Virus record (IMG/VR): IMGVR_UViG_2526164667_000023
From: a virus
Taxonomy: Duplodnaviria > Heunggongvirae > Uroviricota > Caudoviricetes
DNA: 16,133 nucleotides
Reading direction: 5' to 3' (one strand)
Shown piece by piece: positions 8,748 to 8,968 of the stretch. Within the stretch, counting starts at the first letter, position 1. Each line of letters opens with the position of its first letter. The translations under genes and the position numbers were made by a program. The notes below the pieces were generated by a model that was not told where the DNA came from, made no database searches, and was given only the letters and a program-made list of their open reading frames with translations.

Positions 8748-8808
8748 AGAAGATTTCCAATAATCAGAACAAGTCGGCTCCTGTTTAGTTACGAGCGACA
8801 TTGCTCCG

Positions 8809-8834
8809 TGTATTCACTCGTTGGAATGAATACA
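8809..8834. repeat. Perfect 8-bp inverted repeat TGTATTCA-N10-TGAATACA in a non-coding stretch
   Basis: Read directly from the sequence. Confidence 0.6.
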
Positions 8835-8895
8835 CAGTGCAGTGTTTATTCGTATGCCTGTCTTTTAACCACATCAGGCTCGGTGGTTCTCGTGT

Positions 8896-8947
8896 ACCCC
8901 TACAGCGAGAAATCGGATAAACTCTATTCACCCCTACAGAGAGAATG
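8896..8947. repeat. Two direct repeats ACCCCTACAG(C/A)GAGAA(AT/TG) 34 bp apart
   Basis: 16/18 identical 18-mers at 8896-8913 and 8930-8947; non-coding; the IS2 insertion point is 10 bp to the right. Confidence 0.55.
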
Positions 8948-8968
8948 ATGGAGATTCTGGATTTGCCC

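Follow-up and report, generated by a model that had tools for sequence, protein, structure and literature searches.

What is encoded by the 210 bp lying between positions 8748 and 8957 of the prophage DNA studied here (the window, a stretch of 16,133 nucleotides, IMG/VR record IMGVR_UViG_2526164667_000023)? A sequence-only reading had found direct repeats, an inverted repeat, no convincing ORF and a terminator on the minus strand, and had proposed either a small regulatory RNA ending at that terminator or protein-binding sites for a divergent sieB-like promoter. We find that the region consists of two known lambdoid regulatory modules placed side by side, namely the PreS sRNA with its terminator and the sieB promoter with its antisense region. 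Its best explanation, to which we assign a probability of approximately 0.88, is thus that two known non-coding modules of the lambdoid early-left (pL) operon meet here. Both halves are, as judged from 98–100% identity to characterised counterparts, elements that are already known.

Composition and genomic setting of the stretch

The two modules assort independently: a BLAST comparison with phage genomes divides the stretch in two. Positions 8600-8851 are common to hundreds of lambdoid phages at 97–99% identity, and were retrieved by BLAST in 2243 of 5426 E. coli genomes, whereas positions 8855-8943 match a different but overlapping set of phages, P22 and lambda included. In lambda, the two modules lie at approximately 33,924-34,056 (module A) and 34,396-34,480 (module B), with ral and orf28 in between; in P22 they are separated by ral, orf78 and orf87. 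The window and at least 116 complete E. coli genomes have them directly adjoining, in the window because the prophage is without ral. Accordingly, the stretch cannot be treated as the single unit that had been supposed. Leftward on the minus strand, module A (8719-8852) comprises a linker, a 14-bp hairpin, the 88-nt PreS (LPR1) gene and the terminator tL2a. Module B (8855-8957) is the sieB control cassette, whose plus strand carries the promoter PsieB, the leader and a Shine-Dalgarno sequence, and whose minus strand is the template for sas, an antisense RNA.

The window belongs to a lambdoid prophage adjoining ybhC in E. coli and is 100% identical, over the query, to DEC9B, among other strains. 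The gene order, followed leftward along the minus strand, is repressor, N-like gene, sieB (opposite strand), the stretch itself, a ‘TolA’/Sf6-gene-33-like ORF, cIII, kil and the erf region; strains DEC9B and E2865 share the order cIII, gene-33-like ORF, PreS, sieB, N and repressor with the window. This order therefore puts the stretch within the early-left (pL) operon, bounded by sieB and the gene that follows leftward. In thousands of E. coli and Salmonella prophages this DNA is present as an unannotated intergenic region, which can now be labelled PreS/tL2a and PsieB/sas. Two modest side leads emerge, on the excision of PreS from the pL transcript and on target recognition by sas, and neither changes the general picture of lambdoid regulation.

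Two other readings of the stretch were weighed against this arrangement. One holds that the whole 210 bp is a single minus-strand sRNA, expressed in the lysogen from its own promoter, with the repeats and the hairpin inside and ending at the terminator. The minus strand from 8957 to 8719 does form continuous structured segments with a strong terminator at their end; however, nothing resembling a promoter was detected by the scan on either strand, in lambda and P22 ral and other genes come between the two halves, which recombine independently, PreS measures 88 nt and is expressed in the lytic cycle only (bioRxiv 10.1101/2024.10.31.621285), and the sas species of P22 ends before the hairpin (PMC13397905). 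We regard a single sRNA of this length as very improbable. What does exist is a shorter RNA: the sRNA predicted to end at the terminator is PreS/LPR1 (8806->8719), which is only 88 nt long and includes neither the direct repeats nor the inverted repeat. A small protein is less credible still, to the point of being negligible. ORFs can indeed be drawn mechanically at 8808-8948 on the plus strand and at 8785-8994 on the minus strand, but neither has a Pfam match; the former spans the boundary between modules that lie hundreds of base pairs apart in lambda and P22, and the latter starts inside an IS element. A coding role for either was rejected on these grounds, in line with the earlier view that no convincing ORF is present, as a mosaic or IS boundary runs through both. 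The two-module junction is consequently the reading retained in what follows.

Searches of Rfam 15, with the whole window at the gathering threshold and positions 8500-9100 at E <= 10 on both strands, returned only noise. The best match, to RyhB with 19 bits, was discarded, as it concerned the terminator alone. The EcOnc/AgvB and Pas sRNA families of EHEC, also considered, are unrelated and located in late regions.

The PreS gene and the hairpin at its 5' end

The intrinsic terminator described on the minus strand is indeed present: a stem at 8747..8726, with 8 bp of which five are G-C pairs, is followed by a run of seven T at 8725-8719. The feature (8719..8747) was delimited by a terminator scan and by homology to Sf6, in which the corresponding site is annotated as ‘terminator, homology to phage lambda; tL2A’. 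With its GC-rich stem and poly-U tail, tL2a is predicted to form the 3' end of PreS and its Hfq-binding module. PreS, formerly LPR1, is a lambda sRNA located between ea10 and ral, whose 3' end has been equated with tL2a; it was detected as bands of approximately 88 and 68 nt, is Hfq-bound and Hfq-dependent, is expressed in the lytic cycle only, activates the translation of dnaN and represses alaS (bioRxiv 10.1101/2024.10.31.621285).

The ends of the gene were set from primers P1103, P1104 and P810, used for cloning, in vitro transcription and deletion (Table S5 of bioRxiv 10.1101/2024.10.31.621285). These ends, GAGCAATGTCG... and ...GAGGGCGATTTTTTA, correspond to lambda 33,924-34,011 and to the minus strand of the window from 8806 to 8719. 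Over this length the window copy is identical to lambda at 86 of 88 positions (97.7%) without gaps, well within the family as delimited in the preprint (at least 92% identity to lambda LPR1 and at most three gaps; bioRxiv 10.1101/2024.10.31.621285). The seed region, UGUUCUGAUUAUUGGAA, is identical in both. The same holds for CCGACTTGTTCTGATTATTGGAAATCTTC, the region that was removed in the lpr1-delta-seed construct and mutated in M1 and M2, the seed being defined here by primers P838, P888, P970 and P971. The location, in the early-left operon downstream of N/sieB/ral, agrees as well. The single internal difference from lambda PreS is a G to A change at the base of the terminator stem, which converts a U.G pair into U-A, and the minus-strand fold of 8719-8845 is much more stable than expected (z = -5.6). 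The PreS gene of the window is thus intact by comparison with lambda, and Hfq binding, lytic expression and regulation of dnaN and alaS are predicted by homology.

Besides the identical seed, tL2a, U-tail and upstream hairpin, the window and lambda share the place of PreS in the pL operon, immediately upstream of the gene preceding cIII. They differ in that PreS here directly follows the sieB cassette, ral being absent, in that the downstream gene is the Sf6 gene-33-like ‘TolA’ ORF instead of ea10, and in that two IS elements separate PreS from pL. The ‘boundary sequence’ bsq4 of Sf6 (AF547987) is a further counterpart: Sf6 24156-24268 corresponds to approximately 8728-8840 of the window, that is, to PreS and its hairpin. 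That label was purely comparative, for conserved DNA at mosaic joints, whereas an RNA function has now been assigned to this DNA.

The ORF downstream of PreS (7738-8706, minus strand), similar to gene 33 of Sf6, has an in-frame TAG at codon 20 (stop at 8647-8649). RefSeq names it ‘cell envelope biogenesis protein TolA’ and, in related strains, marks it as a pseudogene with an internal stop; no Pfam match was found for ORF 7738-8706. P22 (BK000583) carries at approximately 28,741-28,840, between orf87 and gene 17, a diverged PreS-like gene that we call type 2 (contig L006, 290-389, minus strand), with the same 5' hairpin GAGCAAUAUCGCUC, a related seed and a different terminator. This gene is missing from the ten P22 small RNAs listed in PMC13397905. 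Contig L141 is a chimera, with a type 1 PreS body and a type 2 terminator.

Immediately upstream of PreS lies the inverted repeat of 8 bp that had been pointed out, with TGTATTCA at 8809-8816 and TGAATACA at 8827-8834. It is genuine, and forms the core of a longer element, a 14-bp hairpin with a 4-nt loop, CUGUGUAUUCAUUC-CAAC-GAGUGAAUACACGG, at 8806..8837 on the minus strand, which was defined by folds and covariation and encloses the earlier repeat (8809-8834). In the fold, the last base pair of this hairpin uses the first PreS nucleotide, and the base of the hairpin pairs with nucleotides 1-4 of PreS. The ‘full lpr1 deletion’ of lambda leaves the hairpin in place, so that it lies outside PreS as defined, and the origin of the PreS 5' end is not stated (bioRxiv 10.1101/2024.10.31.621285). 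Beyond the hairpin, the linker CGAAUAAACACUGCA (8838..8852, minus strand) contains the conserved motif GAAUAA(A/G)CAC and delimits module A on its outer side; the equivalent of Sf6 bsq4 (approx. 8728-8840) ends close by.

Other phages display unrelated hairpin sequences at the same place, which brings the number of types to four. P22 and others carry AUAGCAGAUU-UACG-AGUCUGCUAU, another type reads AAUGACCAUU-UCAAU-AGUGGUCAUU, and yet another AAUGCGGAUUC...GAUUCCGCAUU. GAAUAA(A/G)CAC stands before each type and GAGCAAU lies no more than 3 nt from its end; hairpin types and PreS body types recombine freely. RNAalifold applied to nine representatives recovers the helix, with 97% of the cells paired versus 72.8% in shuffles, 33 cells changed on both sides versus 10.8 expected, and compensatory changes at 8 of 15 pairs; among slid registers of this helix, none exceeded 48% paired. 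Moreover, a U.G wobble possible on the minus (sRNA) strand only is kept in eight of the nine sequences, and every hairpin type folds better in the sRNA sense than in its complement. None of the four hairpin types shows, by eye, a conserved -10 motif ahead of the PreS 5' end that could belong to a promoter of its own. In P22, orf87 upstream has the TAA of GAAUAAG as its stop codon, so that the hairpin is intercistronic there.

Conserved as a structure in four unrelated sequences, the hairpin before PreS seems to be undescribed. We propose that it could act as an intercistronic processing or stability element, which would define the 5' end of PreS, cap the upstream mRNA, or both. Its apical part (window 8819-8824, and homologous positions) keeps AUU(Y)...(R)AGU together with the U.G wobble in all four types; this motif may be a recognition element.

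The sieB promoter, the repeated 10-mer and the sas RNA

PsieB and the sas antisense RNA of Salmonella phage P22 were reportedly described by Ranade and Poteete in 1993. The GenBank annotation of P22 (BK000583), on which our placement is based, gives a ‘sieB promoter’ at 29690-29720 and a ‘sieB RNA start site’ at 29727. The 31 bp of the promoter feature are identical (31/31) to 8893-8923 of the window, and the base of the start site is conserved, which puts PsieB at 8893..8923 on the plus strand, with TGTACC as the -35 region (8893-8898) and TAAACT as the -10 (8918-8923, i.e. -12..-7), and the start of sieB transcription at A8930. More broadly, BLAST aligns 8855-8943 with P22 29652-29740 at 98.9% identity over 89 bp, and in lambda, too, this cassette precedes sieB. 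A scan with consensus promoters detected no sigma-70 site on either strand of the region, hence the placement by homology; with an apparent spacer of 19 bp and a weak -35, PsieB was missed by this generic scan because of the latter. From the start site, the leader extends over 8930..8957 with a Shine-Dalgarno sequence GGAG at 8950-8953. In the intact version found in strain E2865, the leader continues ...GGAGATTCACCGATG into sieB.

The direct repeats reported earlier, ACCCCTACAGCGAGAA at 8896-8911 and ACCCCTACAGAGAGAA at 8930-8945, are confirmed as 34 bp apart from start to start and identical at 15 of 16 positions. The pair is therefore real, but its invariant core is the 10-mer ACCCCTACAG (8896-8905 and 8930-8939) and not a unit of 16–18 nt. 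The suspected tie between the repeats and the sieB promoter is borne out. Indeed, from the promoter and start placement, copy 1 occupies -34..-25 of PsieB, over the -35 region, and copy 2, at the start site mapped in P22, forms the first ten nucleotides of the sieB transcript. Both 10-mers are found 34 bp apart in lambda too. With at most one mismatch, the 10-mer occurs twice in the window versus 0.39 expected, and 9 of 200 shuffles reach two occurrences; by chance alone, the pair is only mildly unusual, and conservation is decisive.

The check on conservation proposed by the sequence-only reading was made both for the pre-PreS hairpin, which covaries as described, and for the repeats. Among 79 loci ascertained independently via the SieB protein, both copies are exact and 34 bp apart in 55, and 22 more show a single change. 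A scan of genome contigs with a two-sequence SieB alignment yielded 2 loci, and both copies are present in the Yersinia pekkanenii and Phytobacter loci, in which SieB is approximately 50% identical. More than 80 viral contigs, in which the flanks differ greatly, gave a match to the cassette in a pattern scan for the two 10-mers. Across 37 unique cassettes, TAnnnT is kept at -12..-7 in 35 and the 34-bp spacing is fixed in 32. The cassette precedes three subfamilies of SieB (PF14163) sharing less than 30% identity, as well as the non-SieB family phrog_1244. The ACCCCTACAG pair, kept in nearly all sieB promoter cassettes examined, seems to be undescribed.

Conservation is far stronger in the cassette than in the genes that it precedes. 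In viral contigs L016 (1576-1701), L079 (970-1095), L066 and others, it stands before a 189-aa non-SieB protein with two CxxC pairs (phrog_1244), for which the family annotation assigns no function, and it also stands before a few singleton ORFs. No PADLOC match was obtained for the non-SieB genes behind the cassette, nor any Pfam match for the phrog_1244 protein.

On the minus strand, both repeat copies lie within the template of sas. A 127-nt minus-strand species of P22 (P22A-sas), assigned to sas in Table 2 of a 2026 RNA-seq study, runs from opposite the sieB start codon through both repeats to just past the cassette (PMC13397905). The extent given here relies on that table (PMC13397905): positions 8957->8855 of the window align to nucleotides 10-112 of P22A-sas. 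By definition, sas is complementary to the region where SieB translation starts, leaves the Esc start uncovered and depends on pL in the superinfecting or induced phage. The 5' end of the template is truncated by an IS element, on the other side of which lies the 5'-most segment, over the ATG. Neither P22 nor the window shows, by eye, a separate promoter ahead of the sas 5' end.

Several hairpins that had not been listed before appear in this RNA, at 8888-8910 and at 8856-8860/8875-8879 and/or 8867-8872/8883-8888. The clearest, H2 (UCUCG-C-UGUA-GGGG-UACA-CGAGA, 8888..8910, minus strand), was obtained from RNAalifold and pair counts and contains copy 1. In H2, 98% of the cells are paired, and on the minus sense there are 17 G.U cells versus no A.C cell, every one-sided substitution giving G.U; this asymmetry argues that selection has acted on the leftward (sas) RNA rather than the DNA duplex. 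Two overlapping helices lie in the 3' domain of sas (8856..8888), GCCUG/CAGGC (8875-8879/8856-8860) and ACCAC/GUGGU (8868-8872/8883-8887), with two and three compensatory pairs, respectively, which could form an H-type pseudoknot with an A-rich third loop or represent alternative folds. Around copy 2, per-sequence folds give a weak and poorly defined hairpin whose register shifts between variants. The minimum free energy of cassette B is no better than that of shuffles on either strand (z = +0.27 and -0.34), and it is therefore covariation that carries the structure.

The invariance of the 10-mer does not by itself discriminate between roles in RNA, in the promoter or in protein binding. The two ACCCCTACAG copies might be operator half-sites, at which a DNA-binding regulator of the phage or of the host would act at -34 and +1 to control PsieB. 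To our knowledge, no regulator of PsieB has been described. A repressor would typically sit over the -35 region and the start site, as the two copies do, the fixed spacing in 32 of the 37 unique cassettes fits such sites, and the 10-mers are nearly invariant while flanks and downstream genes vary. However, P22 (41.7 kb) and the window contain no further copy of the motif, which disappoints the expectation of a recurring regulator site and argues against a dispersed operator. The substitutions flanking copy 1 are, moreover, all transitions that keep the pairing of the minus-strand RNA, and a duplex-DNA site would not give the G.U/A.C asymmetry (17 versus 0); finally, copy 1 lies within the palindrome TGTA-CCCC-TACA, and copy 2 does not. 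Protein binding at the repeats is less favoured, nothing having been found in its support, and we hold the operator explanation to be unlikely.

A role in RNA would account for the duplication differently. On the sas strand, each copy would sit in a hairpin, so that CUGUAGGGGU, the complement of the sieB mRNA 5' end, would be presented twice by sas in structured form. In the RNA-OUT/RNA-IN system of IS10, the 5' end of the target mRNA finds its complement in a hairpin region of the antisense RNA, which occludes the ribosome-binding site. By analogy, sas may resemble it as a structured antisense RNA with a hairpin region complementary to an mRNA 5' end and an occluded ribosome-binding site. There is no sequence relationship between the two, and sas differs in that the 10-nt complement is present twice and in that the RNA apparently derives from a long operon transcript.

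The circuit in an intact phage and in this prophage

In an intact phage, the two modules would be read in succession, the steps for which no phage is named below being drawn from homology. In the lysogen, PsieB would transcribe sieB, as shown in P22. Once pL is derepressed, leftward transcription would run antisense through sieB and produce sas over the ribosome-binding site and start codon of SieB, again as shown in P22. The same leftward transcript would continue through the hairpin and yield PreS, whose lytic-cycle expression was shown in lambda, at tL2a. PreS would then bind Hfq, activate dnaN translation and repress alaS, as shown in lambda.

Within this scheme, the stretch possibly holds functional RNA elements that are not yet described, i.e. 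the structure-conserved pre-PreS hairpin, as a potential processing determinant releasing PreS, and the 10-mer duplicated in two sas hairpins; we advance this only tentatively. If true, the PsieB/sas cassette would be a portable switch, on in the lysogen and off in lytic growth, which divergent SieB subfamilies and at least one unrelated family (phrog_1244) would have reused.

The cassette of the window agrees with that of P22 in the base at which transcription starts, and has both ACCCCTACAG copies and every minus-strand hairpin in common with it. Nevertheless, the sieB allele encodes a protein only approximately 50% identical to P22 SieB, the leader differs between copy 2 and the ATG, and an IS element precedes the ATG here, leaving the sas template without the part complementary to the start codon.

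This element, of 1331 bp (8958..10288, transposase on the minus strand), begins at the junction expected from the earlier reading, at 8958, and is flanked by a GATTC target duplication (8953-8957 and 10289-10293). It belongs to the IS3 family according to RefSeq (‘IS3 family transposase’) and to the Pfam matches rve and HTH_21. From its ends, we take it to be IS2. Inserted 5 bp before the ATG at 10298, it separates PsieB and the Shine-Dalgarno sequence from the sieB start codon, so that PsieB reads into IS2. The promoter sequence is thus present, but it does not drive a sieB gene and the functional unit is broken. The sieB gene itself (10298-10337 and 12288-12796) is split again after codon 13 by an IS21-family element at approximately 10338-12287, with IstB (10401-11183) and IstA (11180-12202) both on the minus strand and TTCCTG at both junctions.

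Together, the two insertions place approximately 3.3 kb of IS DNA between pL and sas/PreS, which pL transcripts must cross; they may block pL-driven transcription or replace it. As PsieB is uncoupled from sieB by IS2 and two IS elements follow pL, the sieB circuit is broken and the expression of sas and PreS is uncertain. In this strain, the IS2 and IS21-family insertions show the sieB exclusion circuit to be inactivated, with an intact sRNA gene. In strain DEC9B, the IS2 insertion is present and the sieB ORF is intact.
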